Virus record (IMG/VR): IMGVR_UViG_3300019371_000265
Coordinates: 62,320-126,319 of that record
Direction: 5' to 3' (one strand)
Length of the DNA: 64,000 nt
DNA from: a virus
Lineage: Duplodnaviria > Caudoviricetes
The notes under the pieces were generated by a model. That model ran no database searches, was not told the origin of the DNA, and saw only the letters and a program-made list of their open reading frames with translations. Of this stretch, positions 9,342 through 32,751 are shown piece by piece (position 1 is the first letter of the stretch; the number at the start of each line of letters is the position of its first letter). A program made the translations under genes and the position numbers.

Positions 9342-9518
9342 CTGAAATCAATTTCTAAAACAGACGTAGAAAAACTTATTAAAAATGGTTATTTGAGAAA
9401 CACATGTAATGGCTATATGAATCGTAAAGGTGAGCCGGTAGGTGTTTATCGTACTAAATCAAGTGCAAAGCGTAGATATATTGAGGATTGGTATGCTGAT
9501 AAGGCAAAGACCTTGTAA
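9342..9518 (+). CDS. 58-aa basic hypothetical protein with probable CTG start
   Basis: In-frame TGA at 9333; SD-like AAAGCGAGTGA; CTG AAA TCA ATT TCT ... ACC TTG TAA. Confidence 0.6.
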   Translation: MKSISKTDVEKLIKNGYLRNTCNGYMNRKGEPVGVYRTKSSAKRRYIEDWYADKAKTL

Positions 9519-9548
9519 TACTATATTTCAGGAAAGGTGGTTTTGACC

Positions 9549-10979
9549 ATCGCAAAGAAAAAAGACAAAATTACGGTATCATTTGTTGATGAACCTGCCA
9601 GTGAAGACGTAACGGGTAGCTGTGTTTATGTTGAAACTCCAAATCATAAGTTATTGTTGGATTTTGGTTTACATCAGTCAAATTGTAAATATGATGATTT
9701 CTTAGTAAACAATAGAAAACCTGCGAAATTCAAAGCAAAAGATATTGATTTGGTGTTTATATCACATTTGCACGGCGATCACTGTCTCGCGGTTCCAAAG
9801 TTATACAGAGATGGATTTAGAGGAGCTACGGTGCTTCCCATGAACTCTAAAAGCGTATTTAAGACTATGGAAAGTGATTCGGCATATATTGCAGAACGGG
9901 ATATAGTCGTTATAAACACTCAAAATAATAAAAATTATAGTCCACTTTATGATATATCAGACGTAAATACAATGCTTGAATACACGATTGAACGACCAAT
10001 TAATAAGAAAATCATGATAGATGACGAATTATCATTCATGTTTGTTCCAAGCGGTCATTTGCTTAATAGCTGCCAGATTGTTTTATATATTACGGTTGAT
10101 GGATTAACCAAAACAATCGTATATACGGGTGATATCGGAAATAAAAACATAGATAATTATTTTGTTGGAAAGTTTGAATCAGTGCCATCATGCGATTTAC
10201 TAATTGGTGAATCTACATACGGCGATAGACCTGACTTAAAAACTGGCAAAAAAGAACGTGAAAATGATTTAAATAAGTTGAAGTCAATCATTGATACTCA
10301 GATTAAAGAAATGAACGGGCGTGTACTCATTCCTTCATTTGCTCAATCTAGGATTCAACAGTTAGCATTAATGGTATATGAACTTTACAAAGATGAGCCA
10401 TGGCAGCCAAAGGTATACATTGATTCTCCTCTTGCAATTTCAATATTTAAAGATTATGCGGAAATATTGGAAGGTGAGGACAAGAAGAAATTCGATGAAA
10501 TGCTTAAATGGGATAATTTAGTGTTCGTAAAAGAACCAGAATCCAGTAAAGCACTGGTATCTTCCCCTGAACCTTGCTGCATCATGAGCACAGCGGGAAT
10601 GTGCCAGGTTGGAAGGGTACGTCATCATTTAAAGGCTTTAGTTGGAAATCCTAACGCTACTATCCTGTTCGTTGGATTTAGTACTGAAGGTAGTCTTGCG
10701 AGCATGTTAAAGGATAATAAGAGAAAAACAATCACCATCGACACGAAAGAATATAATTGTAGATGCAGTTCTTATAGTTTAAAAAGCATGTCTGGTCATG
10801 CTCCATTTGACCAATTAGTGAATATTTATTCATCTGTGAATTGTAATAAGATTGTGCTGCATCATGGAAGTAAACAAGCAAAAGAGACGTTGGCTACTGC
10901 ATTGAAAAAAGAATTAGAAAATAAATGCAAATCTACAAGAGTAGTCGTTGCTAATTCAAGTTTGAAATTCTCATTATAA
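9549..10979 (+). CDS. Metallo-beta-lactamase beta-CASP ribonuclease (YSH1/CPSF73-like)
   Basis: HLHGDH, SGH, TGD, ESTYG, SGHA, LHHG motifs intact, with His in motif C (RNA-type); SD GAAAGGTGG places the start at ATC 9549 (track uses GTG 9537 inside the SD). Confidence 0.9.
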   Translation: MAKKKDKITVSFVDEPASEDVTGSCVYVETPNHKLLLDFGLHQSNCKYDDFLVNNRKPAKFKAKDIDLVFISHLHGDHCLAVPKLYRDGFRGATVLPMNSKSVFKTMESDSAYIAERDIVVINTQNNKNYSPLYDISDVNTMLEYTIERPINKKIMIDDELSFMFVPSGHLLNSCQIVLYITVDGLTKTIVYTGDIGNKNIDNYFVGKFESVPSCDLLIGESTYGDRPDLKTGKKERENDLNKLKSIIDTQIKEMNGRVLIPSFAQSRIQQLALMVYELYKDEPWQPKVYIDSPLAISIFKDYAEILEGEDKKKFDEMLKWDNLVFVKEPESSKALVSSPEPCCIMSTAGMCQVGRVRHHLKALVGNPNATILFVGFSTEGSLASMLKDNKRKTITIDTKEYNCRCSSYSLKSMSGHAPFDQLVNIYSSVNCNKIVLHHGSKQAKETLATALKKELENKCKSTRVVVANSSLKFSL

Positions 10980-11006
10980 AATAAACTACAGGAAGAAGGT
11001 TTTATT

Positions 11007-11621
11007 ATAGACGAATTATTATTAACACTCCCAGCAAACTTAGAAAACATGCAGTTACCATCTCCAGAAATGGTGAATTATTGGAGATTAGCTGAAAATC
11101 GCACATTTTATATTGATTACGAGATTGATGAAGGTGTATTAGAAGTTCAGAGATCTATTATAAATATCAATCGTGAAGATAAAGGTAAACCAATTGAAGA
11201 AAGAATTCCGATTAAAATTTTTATTCAGTCTCCTGGCGGTTGTTTATATAGCACATATAGCTTAGCTGATACAATGCTTGCGTCCACTACTCCAATTGTT
11301 ACCGTAAATATGGGGATTGCGCTTTCCGGTGGATTTCTGTTATTTCTTGCGGGTACTCACAGATATTGCCTCTCTCGTTCTCAGGCTATGTTACATACCG
11401 GGTCTACTGGTGTTCAGGGAACGTTTGAGCAGGTAGAGGAATCACAGAAGACATACCGCAAACAAATTCAACAGATGTGTGACTATGTATTATCACGTAC
11501 AAAAATTGATCAGAAAACTTTCAACAAGAATAAGAGTAAAGATTGGTACTTTGATGCAGATGAGCAGGTTGAATATGGAATTGCTCATAGTATTCTCAAA
11601 AGTATTGATGAAATCATTTAA
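11007..11621 (+). CDS. ClpP-family serine protease
   Basis: IQSPGG, ALSGG (Ser), MLH (His), KDWYF (Asp); SD GGAAGAAGGT precedes in-frame ATA 11007, while ATG 11049 has no SD. Confidence 0.88.
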   Translation: MDELLLTLPANLENMQLPSPEMVNYWRLAENRTFYIDYEIDEGVLEVQRSIININREDKGKPIEERIPIKIFIQSPGGCLYSTYSLADTMLASTTPIVTVNMGIALSGGFLLFLAGTHRYCLSRSQAMLHTGSTGVQGTFEQVEESQKTYRKQIQQMCDYVLSRTKIDQKTFNKNKSKDWYFDADEQVEYGIAHSILKSIDEII

Positions 11622-11738
11622 TTTTTTATACCGATTTTTTCGCCTATTCTCACATATATAACACTAACATACATTTTGTAAATAGTATATGGTAATGTTT
11701 CACAAAAAATACAATGAACAATTGGAGGATTTATATAA

Positions 11739-11900
11739 ATGATTGAGAACCACATTTGTAAAAACTGTAATCATCACTCTGTCTGTAAGAATAATACGGT
11801 ACTCGTAAACTTTGATTCAGATTCAAAGAAATTTATCGGAGTAGATATTACTATTAAAAATTGCGATGCCTACTCTCCTATTGAAGAAAATGAAGAATAA
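11739..11900 (+). CDS. 53-aa Cys-rich protein (CKNCNHHSVC)
   Basis: SD GGAGG, manual translation. Confidence 0.7.
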   Translation: MIENHICKNCNHHSVCKNNTVLVNFDSDSKKFIGVDITIKNCDAYSPIEENEE

Positions 11901-11913
11901 GGTGGTGTGAACG

Positions 11914-12888
11914 ATAGAGACTATTAGATTAAATAATGAAACAGATTTTGAATATAAGTTGCGATTATGCAAGATGAAATTAAATAGAGAGATTGATTTG
12001 GATTGGCAGGAAATTGTTGATGTTCTGAATTTAGGCGTATCGGCAGATCACCTCAGAAAAACCGCTTATGGACTACTGGAATACGATGAATATATTCATG
12101 GATTTGAAGGGGTGGCTACTACCATTCTATCAATTTCTGATTTACATGTCCCGTTCCAATTACCAATAACTACATTTTCTGATTATGCAGGTAAAGTGGA
12201 TATATTGCAGATAAACGGAGACGTGGTGGATTGCCAAGCTCTTTCGAAGTTCCCAAAGCAGTATCGTATTTCGCCAAAAGAAGAAATAATTACGGCAAGA
12301 CAATATTTAATTGATCTTTTTGAGTATATAAATCCTAAAAAGGTTGTTATAAATTGGGGAAATCATGACAAGAGATTTGCAAATTATCTTGCCAAGAATT
12401 TAGATACAGATATGTTGGAACTTTTACCAGATACATCACTTGATCTCATTATTGATGATGGAATTAGACATTATAATAAGGTTTCAAAATCAAAAGTTTT
12501 TTATGAGCCATTGAAAAATGTATTCAAGGACACTATTGATATTGAATTCGTAGATGATTGGAAGTCTAAAATCGGAAAGACGTGGTTTGTGCATCCTCTT
12601 GCATATAAGAGTGGAACACTCGCTACAGCTGAACAGGCTAAGAATTATCTACAGGATACATATAAAGAATCTTTCGATACGGTAGTTATGGCTCATACAC
12701 ACGCAATAGGAGACACGAAGAAAGGCTTTATTAGATTGTTTGAACAAGGTGCATGTTGCGATGTGACAAAACTTAATTACATGGACGGACGGCTCTCGAA
12801 GCCACAAAAAGAAGGATTCTGTATTATCTGCCAGGATAATGATGGAAATTTAATTGAAGGCAAATCAAAAGTTGTAACGCTAAATTAA
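11914..12888 (+). CDS. Calcineurin-like metallophosphoesterase
   Basis: SDLH, NGDVVD, GNHD, AHTH motifs; SD AAGGTGGTG precedes in-frame ATA 11914 (in-frame TGA at 11908). Confidence 0.88.
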   Translation: METIRLNNETDFEYKLRLCKMKLNREIDLDWQEIVDVLNLGVSADHLRKTAYGLLEYDEYIHGFEGVATTILSISDLHVPFQLPITTFSDYAGKVDILQINGDVVDCQALSKFPKQYRISPKEEIITARQYLIDLFEYINPKKVVINWGNHDKRFANYLAKNLDTDMLELLPDTSLDLIIDDGIRHYNKVSKSKVFYEPLKNVFKDTIDIEFVDDWKSKIGKTWFVHPLAYKSGTLATAEQAKNYLQDTYKESFDTVVMAHTHAIGDTKKGFIRLFEQGACCDVTKLNYMDGRLSKPQKEGFCIICQDNDGNLIEGKSKVVTLN

Positions 12889-12911
12889 TCACACCAAAGG
12901 AGGTATTAAGT

Positions 12912-13136
12912 ATGTACAGGATTTTAGACTTAGCCGACAAACGTGATAACTACGCTAGTCTCTACAAATATATGATAAAGACCAATGAAGCGAATCAGGT
13001 TTTACCTGTTGAGTTTGCAACCGATACAGAACTTGATACTTTCGTTGATGACTTGTTAAATAATAAGGGTTACGCAAAATCAGATTTCATGATTATCACA
13101 ATCAAAGATTACGGAGTGAGTGCTGATATCGTCTAG
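12912..13136 (+). CDS. Hypothetical protein
   Basis: ORF track; SD AAGGAGG. Confidence 0.75.
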   Translation: MYRILDLADKRDNYASLYKYMIKTNEANQVLPVEFATDTELDTFVDDLLNNKGYAKSDFMIITIKDYGVSADIV

Positions 13137-13199
13137 TATATATCTGACTACTACTCTTCTATTAAAAAAAATAAAAGGATAAAAGGAGATTTACATAAT

Positions 13200-13481
13200 A
13201 TGAACAAACCACAGGTTTTAGAAGAAATTGTATTAAAAACAGGCGAGAGTAAGAAAGCTTCAGATGCAGTTATTTCTGCGCTTTTCGAAGTAATTTCAGA
13301 AACACTCGCAAAAGGTGAAGATGTACAGTTTGTTGGATTTGGCACATTTAAGGCATCAGAAGTGGGCGAAAAGGTTGGAACTATTCAGTTTGGCCAAAAA
13401 GCCGGACAGTCTTATACTACTCCTGCACATAAAAAAGTTTCATTTAAAGTGGGCAGCAAGTTAAAAGAGGCGGTGAAGTAG
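13200..13481 (+). CDS. hup: HU-family DNA-binding protein (SPbeta YonN-like)
   Basis: MNKPQVLEEI, VQFVGFGTF, SFKVGSKLKEAV. Confidence 0.92.
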   Translation: MNKPQVLEEIVLKTGESKKASDAVISALFEVISETLAKGEDVQFVGFGTFKASEVGEKVGTIQFGQKAGQSYTTPAHKKVSFKVGSKLKEAVK

Positions 13482-13482
13482 C

Positions 13483-13626
13483 GTGTATGATGAAATTATA
13501 AAGTCGGTTGATTTGTCGTCCGATGAGATTGAGTTATTAATTACTCTGCTCGAACCGGAGATTGATAATTGTATTTCGGTTGGCGCGGAATTAACAGTTA
13601 GAGGATTATTAGATAAGTTGATTTAA
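13483..13626 (+). CDS. 47-aa acidic hypothetical protein
   Basis: GTG start after SD GAGGCGGTGA; manual translation. Confidence 0.5.
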   Translation: MYDEIIKSVDLSSDEIELLITLLEPEIDNCISVGAELTVRGLLDKLI

Positions 13627-13742
13627 TTTAGAGGAGCAGATGTCACAGTCTGCTCTTTTATTATGCCATTTTGGCGACAGAGAAAACTGGTAGATGGATG
13701 AGAAGATTCTGCTATTGCAATGAACGAAAGGAAGTGATTTAT

Positions 13743-14786
13743 ATGGCTGCAAGAGAAACATATTTTAAGAAAATTACAAGTCCAGAATTAATAGAAAAAA
13801 TCAATCCAGTAAACAAGAAGTTTGTTGATAAATATTTACGCAACTTTGCAACTAAGCGTTCTCCTAGAAGCGTAAAGGCATATAAATCAAACTTCAATAT
13901 ATTCTTCTGCTGGAATATTCTTTATAACGATAACGCTGATTTTACTGATGTGAGAAAAATGGAAATGCAGGATTTCTTTGATTTTGGACTAACTGAGTTA
14001 AAATGGAGTCCAAATAGATATGCACAAGTACATAGTAGTTTGTCTGAGCTTTCGAAATTTATTGAGAAATTCTACGATGAACAGTATCCGACATATAGGA
14101 ACTTGATGATTTATATTGAGAAATTACCAAAGAAGGCTGTACGTAAAAAGTCAGTGTTTAAGAAAGAAGAACTGGATCATTTGATGGAATGTTTAGAAGG
14201 AAGACCTAACGAACAGTGTCTTTTGGCTTTAATTATGAGTTCTGGAACAAGAATTAGTGAACTTGTACGATTTACTACAGACTTAATTGACTATGACAAT
14301 ATTGCTTTTGACGGATTGTTCTTGGAAACTACAGAAGAAATCCAAGTTAAAGGTCATGGAGTTGATGGAAATCATATAAAGAGATATTTGATAAAAGACT
14401 TATTTGTTCCGTGGTATGAGCAATATTTGCCAGTTAGAAAAGAAATTATGGATAAAAATGGGGAAGAGCATAACTATATTTTCGTAAAAAGAGATGGAAA
14501 GCCCGCTACGGTTCATACAATAAGCGCATGGATGGAAAAATGGGACAATTATTTATCTCAGCATTGGTATGCTCATGCAGGAAGACATTTCTGGTGCAGT
14601 TACCTTATTGGTATTGGCTTAGAAAAACAGTTGGTGCAAGAACTTCAGTCATGGTCTAGCGATTCTCTCGTAGATCTATACAATGACAACACCGCCAAAG
14701 ATGTAAAATGGAAAGGTCTTGAAAAATTAAAAGTACAATTGGAAAAAGAAAAACAATCTCTGATTGAAGAAACTGACTCCGATTAA
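13743..14786 (+). CDS. Tyrosine recombinase (Xer/integrase family)
   Basis: SGTRISEL (R), VKG (K), HAGRH, W, LY catalytic set; SD GAAAGGAAGTGA supports ATG 13743. Confidence 0.9.
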   Translation: MAARETYFKKITSPELIEKINPVNKKFVDKYLRNFATKRSPRSVKAYKSNFNIFFCWNILYNDNADFTDVRKMEMQDFFDFGLTELKWSPNRYAQVHSSLSELSKFIEKFYDEQYPTYRNLMIYIEKLPKKAVRKKSVFKKEELDHLMECLEGRPNEQCLLALIMSSGTRISELVRFTTDLIDYDNIAFDGLFLETTEEIQVKGHGVDGNHIKRYLIKDLFVPWYEQYLPVRKEIMDKNGEEHNYIFVKRDGKPATVHTISAWMEKWDNYLSQHWYAHAGRHFWCSYLIGIGLEKQLVQELQSWSSDSLVDLYNDNTAKDVKWKGLEKLKVQLEKEKQSLIEETDSD

Positions 14787-14852
14787 CAAGAAGATTCCTA
14801 ATCAATCTACTGTTTTACAGACAAAATAAAGAGGAGAATATTTCATCTCCTC

Positions 14853-15275
14853 TTACTCTTCCCACTCTACTTTTACATCGATCTCAATATTACAAAGTTC
14901 TAACATAATAAATATCATTGTTCTAGTAAATAAAACGCTTCCTAAAATAATCCACATTAAATCGCCTGTTAACAGGACAGTATGTTTTGGTTCGCTAAGA
15001 TAAAATCCGAGAAATATAATTCCAATACATATAAGCATCTTGGTAATTCTTGTAGATTGCCTTTTATGATCTTTGGTAAGATCTTTATATTTCCCTGTTT
15101 TTATGTTTTCGAAAACTATGGTGGATATTATAAGCAAAGTAATAACTATGCATATCACACCGTAGGTTAAATTTGTTTGTGCTTTATGGCTTAATAATCC
15201 AATCGCGATAATGCCTACACTTCTCGGTATATTGGTAATTAATTCCTTTTGCACGAGTGTTAGTTTTTTATTCAA
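14853..15275 (-). CDS. Four-TM membrane protein (moron)
   Basis: Hydrophobic segments; SD GGAGG. Confidence 0.7.
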   Translation of the reverse strand: MNKKLTLVQKELITNIPRSVGIIAIGLLSHKAQTNLTYGVICIVITLLIISTIVFENIKTGKYKDLTKDHKRQSTRITKMLICIGIIFLGFYLSEPKHTVLLTGDLMWIILGSVLFTRTMIFIMLELCNIEIDVKVEWEE

Positions 15276-15378
15276 AATACATTAACCTCCAATATAAAGT
15301 ATTCACAATATACAATACAGTATATCCATGTTGTGATCAATATATTCCATAAATTATATGTGGTAATTTAGGATAGCA

Positions 15379-15582
15379 CTACTCATCATATCGGAACAAT
15401 TCTTCCACGGCAACATTAAACACTTTTGCAATATCCATGGCAAGTTTTAATGATGGATTATATTGCCCTTTCTCCAATCTAACAATGGTTTCTCTCCTGA
15501 CATTAACCATATAAGCAAGTTCAGCCTGACTTAAATTTAGCTGTTCTCTCTTGGATTTGATTTGGGTTATTAATTTGGGCAT
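15379..15582 (-). CDS. XRE-family HTH regulator
   Basis: LSQAELAYMVNVRRETIVRLEKGQYNPSL. Confidence 0.92.
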   Translation of the reverse strand: MPKLITQIKSKREQLNLSQAELAYMVNVRRETIVRLEKGQYNPSLKLAMDIAKVFNVAVEELFRYDE

Positions 15583-15585
15583 AAT

Positions 15586-15993
15586 CTATTCCTCCGTCAG
15601 GTTGGAATTTTTGCGCTCAATCCAAACATATGCAAATGTCTGAAACAAACCAATAAAACCAGCAATAATAAGAATGGTGCTCGATGTAATTGTGATTCCG
15701 TTTCTAGTTATACCCAAAATCAAGCCAAGTACCACAATCATAAGATAAATAAGATTCATTGTAATTTTTCTTGCTTCATTATAATACTCTTTGGTCATTT
15801 CGTCCCACGGTTCAGTTTTAACTTTTCTGAATAAAAAACTTATAGCGGTGATCACAAGTATAATCGTTCCAATTATAACTGTCCATAATTGTGGTTCCTT
15901 AACCGTACATAGTATACCCATTAATATCGTCCCACTATATGCAATGCCATCTGTAATTAATGTTTTTTGAACAATACCGTATTTTTTGTCCAT
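15586..15993 (-). CDS. Four-TM membrane protein (moron)
   Basis: Hydrophobic segments with EPWDEM loop; SD GGAGG supports ATG 15993. Confidence 0.7.
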   Translation of the reverse strand: MDKKYGIVQKTLITDGIAYSGTILMGILCTVKEPQLWTVIIGTIILVITAISFLFRKVKTEPWDEMTKEYYNEARKITMNLIYLMIVVLGLILGITRNGITITSSTILIIAGFIGLFQTFAYVWIERKNSNLTEE

Positions 15994-16027
15994 TATACCT
16001 ACCTCCAATGTGATGTATTTGTATCAT

Positions 16028-16062
16028 GTGATAAATATATCACTGTGTTGGTAATGTGTCAA
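16028..16062 (-). promoter_or_regulatory. Moron promoter with palindromic operator
   Basis: TTGACA-17-TATATT; GTGATAAATATATCAC (16028-16043) overlaps the -10. Confidence 0.7.
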
Positions 16063-16271
16063 TAGATAATTTAATAAATTTTCAAGTTGGAATTCGGAGA
16101 CTTTAAACCTATGCCATCGGAACAGAAAATTCTAAATCAGTGTGGTACTACTTAGTGTACGATTCAAAATTTGGTGTTTCGCAGCCATTAAGTGAGAAAC
16201 GTTAAATCTTTAATTAGTGAATGACTGCTGTGCGGTCAAATTAGGGAGAGTTCGATACTCTCCTATTTTAT

Positions 16272-16345
16272 TGGAATGTAGTTCAGTTTGGTGGAGCGCC
16301 TGATTTGGGATCAGGAGGTCGCAGGTTCGAATCCTGTCATTCCAA
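16272..16345 (+). tRNA. tRNA-Pro (TGG), CCA not encoded
   Basis: Cloverleaf: TGGAATG/CATTCCA acceptor, CCTGA-TTTGGGA-TCAGG anticodon arm, GCAGG-TTCGAAT-CCTGT T arm. Confidence 0.92.
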
Positions 16346-16350
16346 TTGTC

Positions 16351-16378
16351 AGACAGTCACTATATGGCTGTCTTTTTT
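16351..16378 (+). terminator. Intrinsic terminator after the tRNA
   Basis: AGACAGTCA-CTATA-TGGCTGTCT followed by T run. Confidence 0.75.
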
Positions 16379-16525
16379 ATTATGCAAATATGAATAGAAT
16401 CTTGGACTTCATTAGTCGGTATTTGCTTCGTGGAAGAACATGTGACTTTGCAAATCATATGGGTATGGAACTCCAACATACTCTTCCCCTATTACTAATT
16501 TGGAGTATTATTTAGGAGGATAATA

Positions 16526-21059: not shown

Positions 21060-22748
21060 ATGCCAGAAACAACAAATGAACCCAGGAAAAGAGGTAGACC
21101 AAAAGGTTCGAAAAGTAAAAACAGCGTCAATGACATTAATACTACAGCAGAAATTAATCAAGGAAGCATCACATTGGACGACAAATTCTCACATGAATTT
21201 AACTCGGCAATTCCAGTATCACTCTCCGTTGGCGATACAGTAATAGATTGTCCAGTAGACTTAGATATGATATCGGAGTATAAAGCAAATCCAATGATCT
21301 ATAATCAGCAGTTACGTAGATTATCTTGGTGGGCTTATCGTACAAATGGAACCATCTCTAGCGGTCTTGACTATATGAGGTCAATGCATACTCTGGATAA
21401 AGTTGTTTATACAACGGTTCCTAACACATCTGATTCATTTAAGAAACGCAGAATGTCAAATAAAAAGAAATTCGAATCTGCTCTCGATGCAATTAAATAT
21501 AAGAAATTTATTCGTGATGCCTTATTAAAAGATTTTAATGATGGCATTATTTTTTATTATCTTGAAACTACAAAACCAGTAGCAGAAAATAAGAAATTTC
21601 TTTCAGACGAAGAAGTCTTGAATATATTCGAGATTAATGAATTGGGCATAAATGCATCAATTATAGCGTTGCCAGTTGATTATTGCAAAATTATAAGTAG
21701 GAAGAATGGTTCTCCGCTAGTAGCATTTGATTTAAGGTACTTCTCTCAATATTGTGGAGACAGATTAAAAAGAAAACTTAGATCATTCCCAAAAGAAATC
21801 AGAGATGGTTGGGTCAAATATGATGCTGGAAAACAGATTCAACCGTGGTTGCTCTTGAATAATGATAATACAATTTGTCACAAGATTAAGTCTGCTGATA
21901 GTGAACCATGGGGAATACCTATGCCGATTGCTTCTCTTGATGACATTTTATATGCCAATCATTTTATCAATACGAAAAGAAGTGTCTTAGACGATTTAAA
22001 TAACCAAATTTTCTATGAGACTTATCCAGAAGGTGAAAGGAAAGGCAGTTCTTCTCTCTCTCAGCCTCAACAGACAGCGCAGCATAATATGATTAAAGGC
22101 GCTTTATTTAACAATAACAATCGTTATGGTAAAGCATTTTTCTCTTTAGCTACTGGTACTAAACTTGACCAAATAAAAGTTGATACCACTATTTTTGATG
22201 AAAAAAATGAGGTAAATGTAAAAAATAATATATCTCAAGACCTCGGTATCGAAGCGGCTATTGTTGGTGGAAAATCAAGTGCTAACTTTGCTACGGCTAC
22301 GCTTAATATTGAATGTATCTCCTCTTCTATTTATTCGTACATTACAGAAATTGTAGACGAATTAAATAAGGTGATAAACGCCAATATCATAAATGATAAT
22401 TCATGCCCGACCAAGATGTCAATATTACCGACTACTTTTGTAAATAGAGACAAAATGGTTAAGTATATGAGTGATTTATATGCAAGGGGTAAAGGTAGTT
22501 TACAGGCGTGGATTTCGAGTACAGGAGTTGACCCAGAATGCTATTTAGCTCTCATGGAAGAAGAATTAGAACAGGACGTTGAGAATCGCTTTCCCGTACA
22601 TAAAATTAGTTATAATTTGTCTAGCAAAGATTCTGCTCCAAGTGATATTGATAAAAGCGCTGGGAGACCTGAAGATACAAGTAATTCAAACGAAAATACA
22701 ATTGTATCAAAATCAAATGACGCTAATGGAATGCCAAAAACAAAATAG
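21060..22748 (+). CDS. Portal protein
   Basis: Position after terL, size, PWGIP motif. Confidence 0.75.
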   Translation: MPETTNEPRKRGRPKGSKSKNSVNDINTTAEINQGSITLDDKFSHEFNSAIPVSLSVGDTVIDCPVDLDMISEYKANPMIYNQQLRRLSWWAYRTNGTISSGLDYMRSMHTLDKVVYTTVPNTSDSFKKRRMSNKKKFESALDAIKYKKFIRDALLKDFNDGIIFYYLETTKPVAENKKFLSDEEVLNIFEINELGINASIIALPVDYCKIISRKNGSPLVAFDLRYFSQYCGDRLKRKLRSFPKEIRDGWVKYDAGKQIQPWLLLNNDNTICHKIKSADSEPWGIPMPIASLDDILYANHFINTKRSVLDDLNNQIFYETYPEGERKGSSSLSQPQQTAQHNMIKGALFNNNNRYGKAFFSLATGTKLDQIKVDTTIFDEKNEVNVKNNISQDLGIEAAIVGGKSSANFATATLNIECISSSIYSYITEIVDELNKVINANIINDNSCPTKMSILPTTFVNRDKMVKYMSDLYARGKGSLQAWISSTGVDPECYLALMEEELEQDVENRFPVHKISYNLSSKDSAPSDIDKSAGRPEDTSNSNENTIVSKSNDANGMPKTK

Positions 22749-22761
22749 GGAGTTGATAAAT

Positions 22762-22920
22762 ATTAAATACAAACTAATTTTTGAGCCAAGAGTTGCTAGG
22801 TATTTATTGAAATGCGGACACGTAATTTACGATATAAAACCAAATAAAAATAATTCCGAAAGGACAATATTTGTATTTAAATTAACAGAAAAACTTAAAG
22901 ATGATTTAGCTAGTGTTTAA
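22762..22920 (+). CDS. Small DUF5659-like phage protein with probable ATT start
   Basis: KLIFEPRVARYLLKCGHVIYDIKPNK...TIFVF; SD AGGGAG; no ATG in the conserved-looking part. Confidence 0.6.
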   Translation: MKYKLIFEPRVARYLLKCGHVIYDIKPNKNNSERTIFVFKLTEKLKDDLASV

Positions 22921-22965
22921 AACACTAGCTTTTTTATTTAAAAAAATTCATTAGAAAGGTCAAAA

Positions 22966-24078
22966 ATGAAAAAGACTCATGAAAAATATGAAAGCGAACT
23001 TTCAATTAAAAATCCAAATTTAAAATTACTAAATAAATATTCTGGGGGACACAAAAAAGTTAAATACATATGCTTAAAATGTGGAAACGAGAACGAAGCA
23101 GATGCTTCCGGTTTACTTGCGGGTCATGGCTGCCCTACTTGCGGAATTGAAAAAATGAAATTATCACAAAGACGTACTAACTCAGAATTCATAAATGAAA
23201 TGAAGAAAACTCAACCTACATTAGAAATTTTGAGTGAATATGTGAATTCAAATACAAGGATAAAGGTAAGATGTATTATTTGTGGGAATGAATATACCAC
23301 GATTGCATCAAACTTATTAAGCGGTTATTCATGTAGAAGTTGTTATGATAAAAATAGAACGCGTTCTCACGAAGAATACGTAGATATAATGAAAGATAAA
23401 AAACCAAATATATTAGTATTAGGAAAATATGTTACAAATGATACAAGAATTAAAGTAAAGTGCAAAGTTTGTGGACATGTTTGGAACCCACTTGCTGGTG
23501 CAGTATTAAACCAACATGGCTGCCCCATATGTGCTGGAGTAAAAATAATGCCAACTTCCATGTTTAAAAATAAAATGAAAAATATAAACAATAATATAGA
23601 ATTATTTGGTGACTATCTGGGGTGTAAAGAACCTATGTTGTGTAAGTGTAAAAAGTGCGGGAATGAATGGTATGATACTCCAGATAAAATGTTAAACTTT
23701 GCCTTCAAGTGCCCTATATGTGAAAGAATAAAATCTAATATGGAAGCATATATAGAAGACTTTCTAATTTCTAACAATATAAAATATGAAACACAGAAGA
23801 AATACTTAGGATTAATTGGCGTTGGAGGCAGACAACTTTCGTATGATTTTTATTTACCTGATTTCAATATATTGATAGAAGCGCAAGGGAAGCAACACGA
23901 AAAACCAATAAAATTTTTTGGTGGAGTTAAAGGTCATAAAATACAGAAGGAACATGATAAAAGAAAAATGGATTACGCGAGAAATCATAACATTAGACTT
24001 ATTGAGATCTGGTATTACGACATTGATGACATAAATAACATTTTAGATAATCTATTGTTATCTCGATTAGTAATTTAA
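22966..24078 (+). CDS. Free-standing homing-endonuclease-like protein: Zn-ribbon repeats plus Vsr/DUF559-like nuclease
   Basis: Four CxxC..CxxC repeats; LSYDFYLP..IEAQGKQH..DKRK..LIEIWY. Confidence 0.8.
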   Translation: MKKTHEKYESELSIKNPNLKLLNKYSGGHKKVKYICLKCGNENEADASGLLAGHGCPTCGIEKMKLSQRRTNSEFINEMKKTQPTLEILSEYVNSNTRIKVRCIICGNEYTTIASNLLSGYSCRSCYDKNRTRSHEEYVDIMKDKKPNILVLGKYVTNDTRIKVKCKVCGHVWNPLAGAVLNQHGCPICAGVKIMPTSMFKNKMKNINNNIELFGDYLGCKEPMLCKCKKCGNEWYDTPDKMLNFAFKCPICERIKSNMEAYIEDFLISNNIKYETQKKYLGLIGVGGRQLSYDFYLPDFNILIEAQGKQHEKPIKFFGGVKGHKIQKEHDKRKMDYARNHNIRLIEIWYYDIDDINNILDNLLLSRLVI

Positions 24079-25752: not shown

Positions 25753-25828
25753 ATAAAAAATATCAATTAGCATGGAACACCCCTCATGGGTGTCTTTTTT
25801 ATGCGCAAAAATAAGGAGGAAATTTTTA

Positions 25829-26923
25829 ATGAATACATCTTTTGAATTAAATAATGCAAGAAAAGACGACATTCAGGTCAAAGACCAGAAGAAATTAAAT
25901 AGAGTGGTTGAGATTTGTTCAGCCATTTTTCACGGAGATGATTTAGCAAAATATGGTAAAGAAGTTGATGCCGTAGTAACAAGACTTAAAGATCTTGGCA
26001 ACAGAGCAGACAACGGTGATTGGAGAGCTAGAGCTGAAATAAACTCATATGTAAAGTTTATGATTCAGCCAAAATTACTTGAGTCCATGAAGGTATTTTC
26101 CTTCCTTGGTAACTATAAAGAAATTGGATATGATCAGCAAGCAATGGTGAAAACATACAATTACGAAGGACTCGATGCAAAGATGCAGGCTTCTGGTTCT
26201 GACGTAAGTTTTGCAGGAAAGAACTGGATTGAATATCCAATTACCACAAAGACAATCTCTAGTGGTATGGCAATTGATTATAGAGAATTGGCAAGTGGAA
26301 ACTTTGGTGGAACTATCGCCGAAGAAACTGCACAGGTTCAGATCGACATGAACAACAAGGCAGTTGCCTACGTATTAGAAGTACTTAGCAAGGCTATTAA
26401 AGAAAATACAAAATATGTAAAATTCTATTCTGAATATGATACCGTTCCCACTCAGAGTGGCGTAAATGCAATGATCGCAAATATGAGAAAAATGGGTAAA
26501 GTGGGCATCGCAGGTGATTTCTCTGTTCTTTCTACTATTTGTGATTGGAATGGATATAAGACCGTAGGAGACGCTAGCATACCGTTCTACACACCAGAGC
26601 AGGTAAATGAAATTGCGAAGGCGGGATTAAATGGTTTCTATAAGGGAGCTTCTCTTGTTGAGCTTGAGAATCCATATAACTTTACAAAACCGCTGGCTGA
26701 TAAAACTTCTTTTGAGACGTATTATGATTCTGATAAACTGTATTTCACAGCACAGGGCAATACCTCTCCACTCAACATCTTTAGACGTGGTGGAATTATG
26801 ACTATGAGTGGAAATGATGTTGAAACTGGTGTCGTTAAGACACGCTTCGATATTGAGGTTGGAGCAGATGTTGTTAGGGGTAGAGAATTTGAGATTGGTA
26901 TGATTGCTAAAAAGGTAGTTTAA
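25829..26923 (+). CDS. Major capsid protein
   Basis: Position and size; SD AAGGAGG supports ATG 25829; flanked by hairpins. Confidence 0.75.
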   Translation: MNTSFELNNARKDDIQVKDQKKLNRVVEICSAIFHGDDLAKYGKEVDAVVTRLKDLGNRADNGDWRARAEINSYVKFMIQPKLLESMKVFSFLGNYKEIGYDQQAMVKTYNYEGLDAKMQASGSDVSFAGKNWIEYPITTKTISSGMAIDYRELASGNFGGTIAEETAQVQIDMNNKAVAYVLEVLSKAIKENTKYVKFYSEYDTVPTQSGVNAMIANMRKMGKVGIAGDFSVLSTICDWNGYKTVGDASIPFYTPEQVNEIAKAGLNGFYKGASLVELENPYNFTKPLADKTSFETYYDSDKLYFTAQGNTSPLNIFRRGGIMTMSGNDVETGVVKTRFDIEVGADVVRGREFEIGMIAKKVV

Positions 26924-26995
26924 TTTATTTACCATAGGAGGGGCATTTGCCTCTCCTTTTTATAAAAATAATAATCATTTAAAGGAGAGAGTTAA

Positions 26996-27481
26996 ATGGC
27001 TCAAGTTAAATTAACTGATAGAGTTAGTATTGATAATTTAAGGAGTTGGAATCTTGATTTTAGAGCAACTGAATCTAATAGAGATATTACAATTCCTGCA
27101 AATGTGAAAGGCTATAAACAGCTTACTGTAGCTGAGATTGATGGACAAGTAAAAATGGGGAATTTATTCTTTGTTGGTAAAGATGGTTTTGGAAATAATG
27201 CAGATATCAGAATCAATGACAAAGCAGTTGTAGCATTTGTATTTGGAGAAGGTTCAGAGGAAGATGAATCTCCTGCTTCTACTTTACTCACAAAGGAAAG
27301 CGTATCAGTGCTTTTGAATGCATCTCCAAAAGCTAAATTCCAAGAACAACTTGAAAAGTTAGTGGCTACAGAAGCAGAAAAGAAAACTATTATTCCAATG
27401 GCAAAAGAAGTTGGAATTGATAACGTTGAAGCATATAAAATTGCTGCAATTGAAAAGATTTCAGGATATAAATTCGACTAA
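26996..27481 (+). CDS. Virion/head-associated hypothetical protein
   Basis: ORF track, synteny. Confidence 0.6.
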   Translation: MAQVKLTDRVSIDNLRSWNLDFRATESNRDITIPANVKGYKQLTVAEIDGQVKMGNLFFVGKDGFGNNADIRINDKAVVAFVFGEGSEEDESPASTLLTKESVSVLLNASPKAKFQEQLEKLVATEAEKKTIIPMAKEVGIDNVEAYKIAAIEKISGYKFD

Positions 27482-27498
27482 TACAAGGAGGGTTGAGT

Positions 27499-27888
27499 AT
27501 GAATACAACCTATCAAGATGTATTGTCTTCGTTTCATTCCAACCCGATGTCAAAATATATTCTTGCTGATGAATTGGTTTATCAATGGTTTATAGATGCT
27601 CTTGGTGTTTATGAATTAGAAATTGATGCGTTGGAATTTGACGAAGTTGAACAAAAATTTACCACAAGGTTAAAGCAATACCAGGTTAAAACTCTTGGAT
27701 TGATAATGTACACTTTTTACTTAACCAGAGAATTGAGTCGTGTTGAAAAGTTGCAAGGAATTTCAAGCAAAGGCATTAGCATTACTGGTAATGATGAATC
27801 TAAAAGAATCACTTACAAAGATTTGGAATTAGAATTAAAAAGAGTTGACGAGATGCTACATAAACAAAAAAATAACTGTAATTATTAG
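27499..27888 (+). CDS. Putative head-tail adaptor
   Basis: Synteny; SD AAGGAGGG supports ATG 27499. Confidence 0.5.
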   Translation: MNTTYQDVLSSFHSNPMSKYILADELVYQWFIDALGVYELEIDALEFDEVEQKFTTRLKQYQVKTLGLIMYTFYLTRELSRVEKLQGISSKGISITGNDESKRITYKDLELELKRVDEMLHKQKNNCNY

Positions 27889-27898
27889 GTGGTGAATT

Positions 27899-28954
27899 AT
27901 GGCTGTAGAATGGTATTTAATGAATAATCCACCTAATAGATATAGTGGATTTGAAAATGATGATTTTGAAAACTTTGCACAAGAAGGGTTTAATGAACTC
28001 TTAGATTCTCCTATTGCAGAAGAAATTGAAATTTTTAATTATGATTTGTCAGTGTCATCAACTATAAAAGCAATTATCCATGGCAAAGAAGCCAATACAG
28101 ATCTGAAGTCTCACGAAAGAGAAGTCTATGTAAACGTCGGCACTCTAAAAGCGGGCATGTATATTAAGTACCGCAATATGTACTGGCTCGTAACTGGATT
28201 TGTAGACAATGATAAAATGTGCTCTAAGGCGTTGGTTTCATTATGTCAATACTTATTAAAATGGCAAAATGCTAATGGAACTATAATCGAAAGATGGGTT
28301 CATGCTGCCAGTGCTAGTAAATATGATGTTGGTGAAGATGGCAATAAAACAATTGTTGTGTCTTCAAATACATTTGCTATTATGATTCCAAATGATGATG
28401 AGTCTATGAATCTTGAAGAAAAAAGAGTGTTTATTGATAAGCGTAAAACTAACCCTACGAAGATATTCAAGATAACCAGGAACGATGATGTCTTGAGTGA
28501 TTATGAACATGGTGATGGTGGAGGCATATTAAATCTCATCGCTGATAAAAATTCATTCAACAAAGATACTGATAATCAGGAACTGAGAATCTGTGACTAC
28601 ATCTCTCCCACTACTCCACCCGACCCAGGCGAACCAAGTCAATCGGGCATTTTATGTACAATTACATATAAGGGTGATGCAAGTATAATCGTTGGTGGAA
28701 ATGCTAAGACGTTTACTGCTGTCTATAAAGATGCTGATGGAAATGATGTTAGTAGTAATTATGTGACTGTGTGGAGTATTGTCGGTAATCCGATAAGCGA
28801 GTTATCTCTCGCTCCCACTATAAATTCCGTGAAGATAAAATGTGCGGAGAATGATAAATTGATTAACACTACGTTTACATTAAAAGCAACTGGAAATCAC
28901 AACGCAGAAACCATTGAAACTATGACAATCATTAAACTTTCAAGTATATATTAG
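27899..28954 (+). CDS. Putative head-closure/neck protein with C-terminal Ig-like region
   Basis: Synteny; Pro-rich linker then beta-rich domain. Confidence 0.5.
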   Translation: MAVEWYLMNNPPNRYSGFENDDFENFAQEGFNELLDSPIAEEIEIFNYDLSVSSTIKAIIHGKEANTDLKSHEREVYVNVGTLKAGMYIKYRNMYWLVTGFVDNDKMCSKALVSLCQYLLKWQNANGTIIERWVHAASASKYDVGEDGNKTIVVSSNTFAIMIPNDDESMNLEEKRVFIDKRKTNPTKIFKITRNDDVLSDYEHGDGGGILNLIADKNSFNKDTDNQELRICDYISPTTPPDPGEPSQSGILCTITYKGDASIIVGGNAKTFTAVYKDADGNDVSSNYVTVWSIVGNPISELSLAPTINSVKIKCAENDKLINTTFTLKATGNHNAETIETMTIIKLSSIY

Positions 28955-28966
28955 GGGGGTGCAAAT

Positions 28967-29581
28967 TTGGACATAGATTCGAGAAACTTAAATTTCGTAG
29001 GAACTTACAAAAACAAAATTATTACTCGTCTGACATCAGATGAATTGGTAGTAAAATTGTTGAATCCAGCGGAACACCCTTATCTTGAAACATATGATGT
29101 TTTACTTGGCGGTAAATTTTATTTTGACGAATATGGACATTCTGTTATCCCAGGGCAAGGTAAAGAACAAATACTACAACCTTATGTGTTTGACTATATG
29201 TTTGTAACAGGCACGACTTCTGATCAAAAAACCTTTATTACAGTAGATGTGGTCGTAGATACAGTAGAATATAACATGTTTAACAGGTTTAAATTGATAT
29301 TAAACATATTTGCACACAAAGATTTAGTCTCTTTAAATAAATACAGTGTTCCAACAAAACAGGAAATGGAACAATTGGGGCATATGGGAAATCGTATAGA
29401 CCAATTATGTGGGATAGTTGATATTTCTATAAATGGCGCAGATGTTAAAGCATTGGGGAAAATAAGTCCAAACGAAAGAGGATATTACAGTATTTATTGT
29501 CCAAATGATAATTACTATGGAAAACAATTAGTATATACGGTGACTGGATATAACGAAAGTGGTGATGATTGTGGAAATTAA
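28967..29581 (+). CDS. Putative tail terminator/neck protein
   Basis: Synteny; RIDQLC motif. Confidence 0.45.
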   Translation: MDIDSRNLNFVGTYKNKIITRLTSDELVVKLLNPAEHPYLETYDVLLGGKFYFDEYGHSVIPGQGKEQILQPYVFDYMFVTGTTSDQKTFITVDVVVDTVEYNMFNRFKLILNIFAHKDLVSLNKYSVPTKQEMEQLGHMGNRIDQLCGIVDISINGADVKALGKISPNERGYYSIYCPNDNYYGKQLVYTVTGYNESGDDCGN

Positions 29582-30344
29582 GAAGGAATTGTTATATCCA
29601 TTTCTTATATTCGATAAACCAATCAGATACAAAGAGAACATCACATTTAATCCAGTAAAGATGAAAAACATTATTGAATTCCAACAAAGTTCTCTCTCAA
29701 TCACATTTCCAAAAGATAGTATAGTGACGGAAAAACAACTGATAAAAATGTCATATTTTGATTTCATAAAATATGCTCACGAAAACAAAGAACTTGCTGA
29801 AAAATATGATTCTCCACTTCTTCCATATTATTGGACTTGGGCTTTATCTTTAATTAGATTGACGCTTGATGAAAATATAGAATTAAAATACAATCAGCAG
29901 AATCTTTCAATATTCATAAATGATGAAGAGATATCATCTGAAATATTTGACGATATAAGAAAGATAATTATTTTACAAAATGATATTGATTACGATGTTG
30001 ATGAATTTATGAACAAAGATACAATTCAAGCTCTTGAAAAAGCAAGAGAATTTGAAATGAAAAAAAGAAAAGAAAAGTCCGATATTGAAGACTACATTGA
30101 CTCTATGGTTGTTGGGCTAAAAGTCACAGAAGAATACATATCTAATTTGAGCATTAGAAAATTTTGGAGATACATAAAAAGATTGAATAAGCACGAAGAC
30201 TATCTGGCATGTAGAAGTGGTGAGATGAGTGGAATGGTTACGTTCAAAGAGCCATATTCGCATTGGATGTCTACAATTAGTACTGACGACAAATATGAAA
30301 ACTTAAAAGCAGATGAAGGTGAATTAAGAGGTAAGGTTGGTTAA
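29571..30344 (+). CDS. Conserved tail-region protein (possible assembly chaperone)
   Basis: IRKIIILQN, IRKF, HWM; synteny. Confidence 0.55.
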   Translation: MEIKKELLYPFLIFDKPIRYKENITFNPVKMKNIIEFQQSSLSITFPKDSIVTEKQLIKMSYFDFIKYAHENKELAEKYDSPLLPYYWTWALSLIRLTLDENIELKYNQQNLSIFINDEEISSEIFDDIRKIIILQNDIDYDVDEFMNKDTIQALEKAREFEMKKRKEKSDIEDYIDSMVVGLKVTEEYISNLSIRKFWRYIKRLNKHEDYLACRSGEMSGMVTFKEPYSHWMSTISTDDKYENLKADEGELRGKVG

Positions 30345-30397
30345 CGACTTTACTTCTTTTTATTTTAAATCAAAAATAAGAAAGTGAGGAAATAAAA

Positions 30398-31378
30398 ATG
30401 GCAAAAGATTTTTTAGTGTCAACGGCTGACGTTGCATTTATGCACAACAATATGCTTGCATTTACTGGAACTACCTCTATTACTACAAGCCTTTCCGTAT
30501 CTATGGAAGACCAGGAGGTTACTGGTGGCAAGGGTCAGAAAACTTTATACAAATTTAAGTATGGCAGAAAACTTACCGCATCCATTGAAATGGCTGAATG
30601 GAACCTGGCTTACATTGCTGCAAATGCTGGATCTACTATTTCAGAAAGCCTTAAAGATGTATATAAGGTAGCAGAATGTGTCACTCTCACAAATGGTGTG
30701 GGCACCCTTGCAAAAACTCCGGTTGGGCATGTATTTGTTGAAAAAGAAGATGGTACTATTTCAGAAGTAACTCCATCTAGTTCTACCATCACCGTTGGAA
30801 CAATTAATGGAAAAGTAAAAGTTACATACAAATTTAATACCACAGCAAAGAGAGTTACCATTGATGCAGACTCTACCCCATTGGTCGGCAAACTTATTTT
30901 AAGTGCAGACAAACACAACAATGGTGTTGGCAAGGTTGCAGAGATTCAGGTGGAAGTTCCTTCATTCCAGTTGAATGGTACTTTTGATATTTCAATGGAA
31001 TCAGGTGGTGTTTCTACAACAAAATTAGATGGAGATGCGCTTGCGGTTGAAGGCGATAGCTGTGTAGATGGTTATGTATATGCATACATCACAGAAATTC
31101 CATCTGTTGCATCTAGTGTTGCTGTAGCTGATATTGCGGCTACTCCCTCTGTAGTTTCTCTGACAGTAGGCGGAACTCAGGCAATCACCGTAATTGGACT
31201 TAAAGGTGGTATGTATAGTAATGTAAGTGTCGATGTAGCTGATTGTACTATTACTTCTGGTACACCTGCCATTGCTACTGTTGCAGGTGGCGTGATTACT
31301 GGCGTATCCGCGGGTACAGCATTAATTAACATTACTTACAATGGACTCAAAGATGTAATTAGTGTTACCGTAGCGTAA
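30398..31378 (+). CDS. Major tail tube protein with C-terminal Ig-like (Big_2) domain
   Basis: EVTGGKGQ motif; SGTPAIATVAGGVITGVSAGTALI. Confidence 0.75.
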   Translation: MAKDFLVSTADVAFMHNNMLAFTGTTSITTSLSVSMEDQEVTGGKGQKTLYKFKYGRKLTASIEMAEWNLAYIAANAGSTISESLKDVYKVAECVTLTNGVGTLAKTPVGHVFVEKEDGTISEVTPSSSTITVGTINGKVKVTYKFNTTAKRVTIDADSTPLVGKLILSADKHNNGVGKVAEIQVEVPSFQLNGTFDISMESGGVSTTKLDGDALAVEGDSCVDGYVYAYITEIPSVASSVAVADIAATPSVVSLTVGGTQAITVIGLKGGMYSNVSVDVADCTITSGTPAIATVAGGVITGVSAGTALINITYNGLKDVISVTVA

Positions 31379-31441
31379 GACTATGGGTAGAAGGGTTTAT
31401 CGCTCTTCTACCCTAATCACACTAAAATGGAGGTGGCATTA

Positions 31442-31690
31442 ATGGATAACAGAGAAGAAGTTAAAGCGAAAGAATTACCAAAAAAACAAAGAGATTTATT
31501 TAAAGTAGAAAAATGTAAAGTTTTAAAGTATGACAGCTTAACAAATGCTTTGGATTTTGATTTTTTAGGATATGGTTTGAGATTATATGATGTTGAAAAT
31601 TTCAGTGGAGATACTGTTGATATAAAGTATAAAGGCACAATTGGGAAACCGGATTTCGTGTGTAAATTATGGAATAGCGACAATGTGTAA
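31442..31690 (+). CDS. Hypothetical protein
   Basis: SD GGAGGTGG supports ATG 31442. Confidence 0.65.
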   Translation: MDNREEVKAKELPKKQRDLFKVEKCKVLKYDSLTNALDFDFLGYGLRLYDVENFSGDTVDIKYKGTIGKPDFVCKLWNSDNV

Positions 31691-31874
31691 ATATGCTTAT
31701 GAGGATTTCTCTGATAGAGCTAAAAAGATAATGATATTCTGTCATCTGAAAGATAATGAAAATTCAGAAATGCTCAAACTATGTACATCTCAAAGGTATT
31801 GTAATAATGAAGATAAATATATTCCATACAAGCAAAAGGAAAATTGTAAATATTGTGAGCGAAAAATAGATTAG
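31683..31874 (+). CDS. Small Cys-rich protein
   Basis: ATG 31683 coupled to the upstream stop. Confidence 0.6.
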   Translation: MCKYAYEDFSDRAKKIMIFCHLKDNENSEMLKLCTSQRYCNNEDKYIPYKQKENCKYCERKID

Positions 31875-31963
31875 TGAATATATAGGCAAGTTATATTCTA
31901 ATCTATTCACAGATTATTATTGTAACTTGCCTATTTTTTACGATAATGAAAGGGGTTGAGTGA

Positions 31964-32143
31964 TTGAAAATAGACCCGGAGTATTCTTGCAATTGGGCGG
32001 CAGAAATGCAATATCTATTAAACAATGGAATCAGGTATACGTTTGTCAAAACTGAAAATGGCATTACTATTTGGAAGTATAAAAAGAACATGGAATTATT
32101 TAGTAGTTTAAGTGATTTTTACAAAGAGGTATATAGTAAATAA
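31964..32143 (+). CDS. 59-aa phage protein (TTG start)
   Basis: SD AAAGGGG; MKIDPEYSCNWAAEMQYLLNNGIRYTFVK... Confidence 0.65.
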   Translation: MKIDPEYSCNWAAEMQYLLNNGIRYTFVKTENGITIWKYKKNMELFSSLSDFYKEVYSK

Positions 32144-32211
32144 AACTCAAATTTGATAGACAGTCGTAGTCACTACTACGGCTTATTTTTATGTAAAAGG
32201 GGCGATAAATC

Positions 32212-32751
32212 ATAGCACAAAATGTAGGAAAAGTTTTCGAAAATAACTGGAAAAATAGTTGTCCAGACTGGCTACTCGTACACCGTCCACCAGACGCAGC
32301 ACAATCATTTGATAAGGGAGACGAATCAGCCGAGCCTAAAAAGCACTCACCTCTCCGATTCTCGGCACACAGCCCATGCGACTACATAATGTTTAACGGA
32401 TACTCTTCTACTTTCTATGCAACCGAACTTAAAACGAGTGCAGGAGCATTTTCATTTGAGCGCACCAAAGAAGACAAAGGAATGATCCACCTGCACCAGA
32501 TTGAGAGCTTGAAAAAATTCGCTACATATAAAAATGTAGTAAGCGGATTCATTCTCGACTTTCGCAAATCAAATAATACATATTTCATATATATAGAAGA
32601 TTTTCTGCGAATGATTGGACACGTCGACAAGAAAAGTTTCAATGAAACAGATTTATTAACCTATGGAAATCCTGTGTTAATCAGCAAAACAAAGCTACGA
32701 GTAAACTACAGGTATGATGTTGAAAAATTCCTAAATGATGTAAAAGCATAA
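32212..32751 (+). CDS. recU: RecU-like Holliday junction resolvase (ATA start)
   Basis: NVGKVFE and SPCDY lie upstream of the first ATG (32389); ELKT and HQIE follow; in-frame TAA at 32206, SD AAAAGGGGCGA. Confidence 0.78.
   Translation: MAQNVGKVFENNWKNSCPDWLLVHRPPDAAQSFDKGDESAEPKKHSPLRFSAHSPCDYIMFNGYSSTFYATELKTSAGAFSFERTKEDKGMIHLHQIESLKKFATYKNVVSGFILDFRKSNNTYFIYIEDFLRMIGHVDKKSFNETDLLTYGNPVLISKTKLRVNYRYDVEKFLNDVKA

Follow-up and report, generated by a model that had tools for sequence, protein, structure and literature searches.

Can a gene that carries a strong ribosome-binding site and no suitable ATG, GTG or TTG begin instead at ATA, ATT, ATC or CTG? This question is raised by a 64,000-nucleotide (nt) stretch of a provirus (Duplodnaviria; Caudoviricetes), positions 62,320 to 126,319 of IMG/VR record IMGVR_UViG_3300019371_000265, which we refer to as the window. 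The initial annotation listed six genes of the window at which a Shine-Dalgarno (SD) sequence precedes such a near-cognate codon, namely CTG 9342, ATC 9549, ATA 11007, ATA 11914, ATT 22762 and ATA 32212. All six codons lie at these coordinates, and the proposed arrangement of SD and near-cognate codon holds for five of them, each marking the 5' end of a conserved frame, CTG 9342 being weak. Judged from the sequence comparisons described below, these codons are probably (about 80%) the real starts of at least five of the six genes, used by near-cognate initiation with an extended SD. ATA, ATT and ATC are collectively abbreviated as ATH.

Probable start codons of four enzyme genes

SD use is heavy in this genome. 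In 180 of 200 candidate open reading frames (ORFs), an SD precedes an ATG, GTG or TTG by 3-12 nt, and all six genes fall among the remaining 20. The claim that they lack a well-placed canonical codon holds overall, with the qualification that in-frame TTG and GTG codons near 9549 and a TTG near 22762 lie in the SD or close beside it. The resolvase gene is organized as follows.

32195..32203, + strand: SD of the resolvase gene, AAAAGGGGC, score 16, spacing 8 to ATA 32212 and 5 to ATC 32209
32212..32751, + strand: RecU-type Holliday junction resolvase gene, start ATA 32212

The RecU frame contains a TAA at 32206, opens at 32209 and reaches its first ATG at 32389. Both GKxFE and the P-C-D motif with its catalytic Asp lie upstream of this ATG, and we agree with the initial annotation, which ranked RecU as the strongest case, that a functional protein must start non-canonically. 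ATC 32209, adjoining ATA 32212, is a near-cognate alternative. The protein matches Pfam RecU (28.7 bits, cut-off 25) and phrog_843 (1e-20, aligned from residue 3), is a distant match to YotM of Bacillus phage SPbeta, and shows invariant D57, E72 and K74 in the alignment, corresponding to the catalytic Asp...Glu-x-Lys of PD-(D/E)xK.

A scan with the RecU protein yielded 45 IMG/VR loci, about 38 of which carry ATA at the aligned codon, at 60-80% protein identity. The codon preceding this ATA varies among them (ATC, ATT, GTT, CTT). ATC and ATT also occur at the start codon itself, in two other relatives, and more distant IMG/VR homologues have ATG at exactly the ATA-aligned codon. In bacterial genomes the aligned codon is ATA (3 loci), ATC (1) or otherwise ATG or GTG. 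In a maximum-likelihood tree, every ATH row is placed within one 36-row clade, the outgroups are all canonical, and 5-6 changes of state between ATH and canonical codons are required. Read from this tree, the ATH state persists in at least seven separate lineages, yet is labile.

Three further enzyme genes were compared with their orthologues. As a single-protein scan with the beta-CASP protein returned one relative, whole related records were used instead; the resulting six-phage set consists of the window's genome (G000) and five whole related records.

9530..9540, + strand: SD of the beta-CASP gene, AGGAAAGGTGG, score 20, spacing 8 to ATC 9549
9549..10979, + strand: beta-CASP metallo-beta-lactamase nuclease gene, start ATC 9549 (Pfam Beta-Casp, RMMBL, Lactamase_B)
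10990..10999, + strand: SD of the ClpP-like gene, AGGAAGAAGG, score 19, spacing 7 to ATA 11007
11007..11621, + strand: ClpP-family protease gene, start ATA 11007 (Pfam CLP_protease)
11899..11907, + strand: SD of the phosphoesterase gene, AAGGTGGTG, score 17, spacing 8; overlaps the stop of an upstream gene of 53 amino acids (aa; 11739-11900)
11914..12888, + strand: calcineurin-like metallophosphoesterase gene, start ATA 11914 (Pfam Metallophos)

ATC 9549 lies 8 nt past GGTGG (9536-9540), and the sequence ATC GCx AAG AAA AAA is kept in the beta-CASP genes of G000, G006, G005 and G003, at 33-37% protein identity; in G003 a TAA stands two codons upstream of the ATC. A caveat at this site is the presence of in-frame TTG 9543 and GTG 9537, within the SD core or 2 nt from it. 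Neither has a counterpart in the G005 and G003 orthologues, whereas the ATC is kept. The ClpP ATA is conserved in three genomes according to the orthologue alignments. G005 ClpP (56% identity) retains the SD and TTT ATT ATA, and the codons that follow diverge like coding sequence; ATT 11004, adjoining ATA 11007, is again a near-cognate alternative. The G003 ClpP homologue has an ATG start farther upstream. For the phosphoesterase, ATA 11914 is located 8 nt past GGTGG (11901-11905), with an in-frame TGA at 11908 just before ACG ATA. Its start-aligned codon is ATA in G000, ATT in G009 (67% identity) and ATC in G001 (42%), each 8 nt from the SD core.

In their homologues, then, the RecU, beta-CASP, ClpP and phosphoesterase genes retain ATH codons and are not all ATG. 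This bears on the possibility that the unusual codons stem from sequencing or assembly errors, or from pseudogenes of a decaying prophage, a concern that the initial annotation had itself voiced and that the origin of the window, a single metagenome-derived provirus record, would invite. The same codons recur in orthologues from dozens of independent assemblies, isolate genomes included, and the frames remain open and evolve as coding sequence, which leaves error or decay an extremely unlikely explanation.

A second possibility is that ordinary starts have been overlooked, either a downstream ATG or TTG or a GTG or TTG in or beside the SD. Public gene calls use such codons: RecU is listed as 120 aa from ATG 32389 (32389-32748), ClpP as 190 aa from ATG 11049 (11049-11618), and beta-CASP from TTG 9543 (9543-10976) or from GTG 9537. 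Standard gene callers accept ATG, GTG and TTG only, and RecU and ClpP are for this reason N-terminally truncated in public collections. Many SDs of the GGTGAT type also contain an in-frame GTG. A RecU begun at ATG 32389, however, would be without GKxFE and the invariant Asp57, and for ClpP, G003 has CTA in place of ATG 11049 while protein conservation reaches upstream of that codon. No SD precedes ATG 11049, nor TTG 11959 and ATG 11974, the first canonical codons of the phosphoesterase frame, although 180 of 200 ORFs of this genome combine a canonical start with an SD. TTG 9543 and GTG 9537 are missing from two orthologues that keep the ATC, as described above, and a GTG within the SD cannot sit in the P site while the SD is paired. 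Overlooked ordinary starts are thus an improbable account of these genes.

Site architecture and frequency across phages and host

The architecture of ATH and ATG starts was compared under an identical filter (SD score >=16, spacing 6-9 nt), with the following results.

SD extended 3' by TGAT (full GGAGGTGAT): ATH 21/47, ATG 30/426
Spacing of exactly 8 nt: ATH 29/47, ATG 128/426
SD score >=20: ATH 60%, ATG 30%

TTG and GTG genes are intermediate between ATH and ATG genes in their SD architecture. The window sites at 9549, 11007, 11914, 22762 and 32212 have SD scores of 16-20 and spacings of 7-8 nt.

Chance occurrence was assessed on those ORFs of the six phages that lack an ATG, GTG or TTG with an SD and have an SD score >=15, counting in-frame ATH codons at 5-10 nt. 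Such a codon follows the strong SD in 48 of 79 ORFs, compared with 190 of 1363 SD-like sites (14%) deep inside genes (Fisher p = 4e-20), so the near-cognate codons after SDs are not a product of chance. Under the stricter filter, the six phages contain 47 candidates among about 1160 ORFs (ATA 26, ATT 17, ATC 3, CTG 1). On one Lachnospiraceae isolate contig, the same filter selects 15 of 243 ORFs in low-GC (guanine plus cytosine) prophage-like regions against 0 of 489 host ORFs (p = 5e-8). Applied to Bacillus phages, it selects 0 of 128 in SPO1 and 5 of 190 in SPbeta; three of the five SPbeta matches (yomF CTG, youA ATT, yotK ATT) coincide with starts annotated in RefSeq. A looser scan combined with orthologue checks raises the G000 total to about 11-12, adding an ERCC4 nuclease, a HAD phosphatase, an antirepressor and small proteins. 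By these sequence-based counts, such starts would account for about 3-6% of genes in this prophage and its relatives.

The genes concerned form a biased set. ATH starts are found on resolvase, beta-CASP, ERCC4 and GIY-YIG nucleases, metallophosphoesterases, HAD and NT5C phosphatases, ClpP, integrase, antirepressor and one DNA polymerase III alpha, and homing endonucleases are also listed among them. When HAD_SAK_2, PHP, Metallophos, NT5C and GIY-YIG proteins are read from their ATH codons, the Pfam matches set in at residues 2-6. Two more orthologue pairs lie beyond the window: an ATA of the Rha/ANT antirepressor in G000 corresponds to ATG in G009, and an ATA of DNA polymerase III alpha in G006 to ATG in G001. 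Packaging and virion genes have canonical starts; in the window the terminase, the portal, a virion structural protein and a tail fibre protein begin with ATG. The initial annotation had assigned non-canonical starts to accessory enzymes and ATG to high-copy structural genes, and both parts of this picture are borne out, the former as a functional bias across the ATH genes of related phages.

Several points weigh against this reading of the sites. The SD of the window RecU gene is of moderate strength (score 16). An in-frame GTG is present 9 nt upstream, inside the extended SD, in about 45% of the family-wide candidates and is, from sequence, formally a possible start; its presence follows from the layout, since GGTGAT with 8-nt spacing unavoidably creates one. 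Some of the family-wide candidates are probably false. A G003 RNA ligase candidate is doubtful, its Pfam match beginning at profile position 19. Beyond the window, at genome position 2157, an ATA was discounted as a start because its ORF is the C-terminal part of NrdD, a split gene. That ORF (G000 genome 1666-2184, minus strand; L090:1666-2157; about 60 kb left of the window) matches NrdD profile positions 415-560 of 562 only, and what interrupts the gene is possibly an intron, intein or mobile insertion. ATC 14845 was likewise rejected as a start, as it lies within a terminator-like hairpin between convergent genes.

Small genes, recoding and the source prophage

The remaining two of the six sites belong to small genes.

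9322..9345, + strand: 7-codon upstream ORF (ATG AAA GCG AGT GAA TTC TTC TGA) with its own SD, GGGAG, at 9308-9312
9336..9518, + strand: small gene of 58-60 aa, candidate starts ATT 9336 or CTG 9342
22746..22752, + strand: SD of the DUF5659-like gene, TAGGGAG, score 19, spacing 8
22762..22920, + strand: 52-aa DUF5659-like gene, start ATT 22762, 8-9 nt past TAGGGAG

CTG 9342 is the weakest of the six sites and doubtful as a start. Its SD is mediocre (AAAGCGAGTGA, score 15), and ATT 9336 is equally possible. The frame has an in-frame TGA at 9333, and its first canonical codon is TTG 9393. The alignment with the homologous G001 product (48% identity) begins at residue 7, which precedes TTG 9393, and the gene therefore still needs a non-canonical start. 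The TGA of the upstream ORF (9343-9345) overlaps CTG 9342 as cTGa, an overlap that could permit termination-reinitiation. In the G006 relative (L048), the ATG AAA G of the upstream ORF and its SD are conserved, but a different small gene follows, which starts at ATA, 8 nt past GAAGG.

These features bear on recoding, in which ribosomes would arrive from a short upstream ORF by frameshifting, or by termination-reinitiation, without near-cognate initiation. An overlapping upstream ORF exists at 9322-9345 only. In its favor are the upstream ORF at 9322-9345, with its good SD and a TGA overlapping CTG 9342, and an out-of-frame ATG in the spacer before the RecU ATA of L006-type relatives. The latter ATG (L006 ~2985-3003; ggaATGaatagttATA) lies between SD and ATA and opens a short +1-frame ORF over an A-rich stretch. 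A frameshift from it was rejected as the source of RecU, as the ATG is missing from the window/L003 lineage, which retains the ATA; neither an upstream ATG nor an open alternative frame precedes RecU in the window and L003. The L006-type ATG, moreover, directly adjoins its SD-like sequence and is not shared throughout the ATA clade, and for beta-CASP, ClpP and the phosphoesterase it is the SD-to-ATH geometry that is conserved. We consider recoding very unlikely as a general explanation.

The DUF5659-like gene has a weak Pfam match (22 bits, below the cut-off). Its G006 orthologue (56% identity) carries ATG at the aligned first codon, and an in-frame TTG at 22753 abuts the SD in the window. Together with a 370-aa HNH homing endonuclease (phrog_559), the gene occupies 22762-24078, between the portal and the next structural genes, and this pair resembles a mobile insertion into the packaging module.

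The provirus record is 126,319 bp long, and the window makes up its right half; the GC content of the phage is 33-34%, compared with 42-46% in most host stretches. Host DNA (SpoIID and glycogen phosphorylase, GC ~44%) is found at the right end of the window. One source contig of the public proteins mentioned above measures 321 kb, so the prophage is also found inside a longer bacterial contig. Fourteen ORFs of the window phage match SPbeta, including YonO at 37% identity, the terminase YonF, the portal YonE, the tape measure YomI, the polymerase YorL, the antirepressor YoqD and the resolvase YotM; on the basis of these matches, the phage is a distant relative of SPbeta. Its relatives were found in genomes of Lachnospiraceae and other Clostridia. 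Megablast of a 24-kb region against the phage collection gave a match to tRNA-Pro only, so no close sequenced relative is present there.

A search of the phage for initiator-like tRNAs and other translation RNAs returned only tRNA-Pro(TGG) (window 16271-16346) and tRNA-Gln(TTG) (genome 44295-44367), with no further Rfam family. The tRNA-Pro is about 91% identical to those of unrelated large coliphages. The domains IF3_N, IF3_C and IF1 were likewise sought, and no IF3 or IF1 homologue was found in the phage.

A near-perfect SD (AAAGGAGGTG, score 25) is present on the minus strand at window 59600-59640, inside an acyltransferase-3 gene (58665-59738). It lies about 40 codons into the ORF, is followed by ATT/GGG, and could represent either an internal start or a fortuitous match.

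Presumed weak initiation, its possible purpose and significance

Near-cognate starts of this kind have precedents. In E. coli and many other bacteria, infC begins with AUU, through which its product IF3 autoregulates by proofreading; pcnB also begins with AUU. The Lachnospiraceae hosts' own infC has a GGAGGTG-9 nt-ATT layout. In the infC system the product closes a feedback loop, whereas the phage genes encode a nuclease, a protease, a phosphoesterase and a resolvase, so that no such loop is formed.

In S. aureus, infC (AUA), cvfC1 (AUU), ccpN (AUA) and citZ (AUA) use such starts, with extended SDs and conserved codons, and in reporters these starts yield 10-30% of AUG output (Nat Commun 2026, PMC13009471). 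The phage starts resemble these four in their codons, in a long SD reaching toward the start codon, in suitable spacing and in conservation across species. They differ in density, with four sites per bacterial genome in S. aureus and about 6-12 in 126 kb in the phage, or 3-6% of genes across the lineage and none of the 489 sampled host ORFs. They differ also in the kinds of genes, the phage set comprising nucleases, phosphoesterases, a protease and regulators, and in being known from sequence alone. Among phages, S. thermophilus phage TP-J34 has one AUU and one CUG start among 60 ORFs (PMC3952083). SPbeta shows the same SD-8 nt-ATT layout as the clade of the window phage. Such starts occur in about 3-5 of 190 SPbeta genes and are mostly ATT or CTG, whereas the gut clade uses mostly ATA, has about twice the density and places these starts on other genes; the resolvase itself starts with TTG in SPbeta YotM and with ATA in the window. 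SPbeta (NC_001884) also contains a 1.7-kb interval between yonK and yonN, 59153-60833, without an annotated gene in RefSeq. Taken from these sequence comparisons, the trait is common to SPbeta-like phages, weaker in SPbeta and densest in the gut Lachnospiraceae clade.

We postulate that initiation would occur at AUA, AUU or AUC, presumably by the ordinary initiator tRNA, with the 30S subunit held in register by long SD pairing, often a full GGAGGUGAU, that extends toward the start codon, with the distance from the GGAGG core constant at about 8 nt. From the S. aureus and infC work we infer that AUG would initiate several-fold more strongly than these codons and that their use would be sensitive to proofreading by IF3. 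Resolvase, nucleases, phosphoesterases, ClpP and some regulators would then be produced in small, catalytic quantities from operons that are highly transcribed.

The initial annotation proposed that these starts gate potentially toxic enzymes or link them to IF3 status. Such a role is plausible, as it fits the S. aureus reporter data and the layout of the host infC, and any link to IF3 would act through the host factor. Selection for low output would be favored by the bias toward enzymes and regulators, the canonical starts of packaging and virion genes, the deep conservation of ATC in beta-CASP and the TTG of SPbeta YotM. A more far-reaching proposal, possible but to our mind unlikely, is that SPbeta-like phages, chiefly those of the gut Lachnospiraceae clade, operate a translational regulon that spans the genome, in which dozens of enzyme and regulator genes on AUA, AUU or AUC starts with full-length SDs would have their output, and perhaps their timing, set by host IF3 proofreading and not by transcription.

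The same initiation may alternatively serve no regulatory purpose. AT-biased mutation would convert ATG to ATA or ATT, a change that would be near-neutral where a long SD sustains expression and that could drift in both directions. The low GC content of the phage relative to its host, the repeated switching in the RecU tree and the share of ATA and ATT among the candidates (43 of 47) are all consistent with this. The at least five ATH/ATG switches and the AT-rich composition weaken the case for an adaptive throttle and leave room for near-neutral drift, and many ATH-start genes encode small proteins without known function, which sits poorly with a gate for toxic enzymes. AT pressure does not, on the other hand, favor ATC, which beta-CASP keeps in four genomes at 33-37% identity. 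SPbeta, of equal GC content (34.6%), has fewer such starts, with one candidate ATA only. Such starts favor enzymes and regulators and are absent from packaging and virion genes, and the co-occurrence of longer SDs with fixed spacing indicates selection on the sites. We entertain drift without purpose tentatively, as a possible though not a likely account.

The initiation mechanism as such is already known; what is new is how densely it is used in a phage family, how well it is conserved there and how it is biased by gene function. For annotation, the public 120-aa resolvase would be a catalytically dead fragment and the public ClpP would be deprived of its N-terminus. Several percent of the proteome would be mis-called in this widespread family of large gut prophages, and some small genes may be missed entirely by gene callers. 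The more than 47 conserved AUA, AUU and AUC sites, with ATG-bearing orthologues as built-in controls, make up a natural set on how SD length and spacing compensate for weak starts in Firmicutes. If the weak starts are adaptive, they would represent a phage way of producing DNA- and RNA-cutting enzymes at trace levels from operons under strong transcription.

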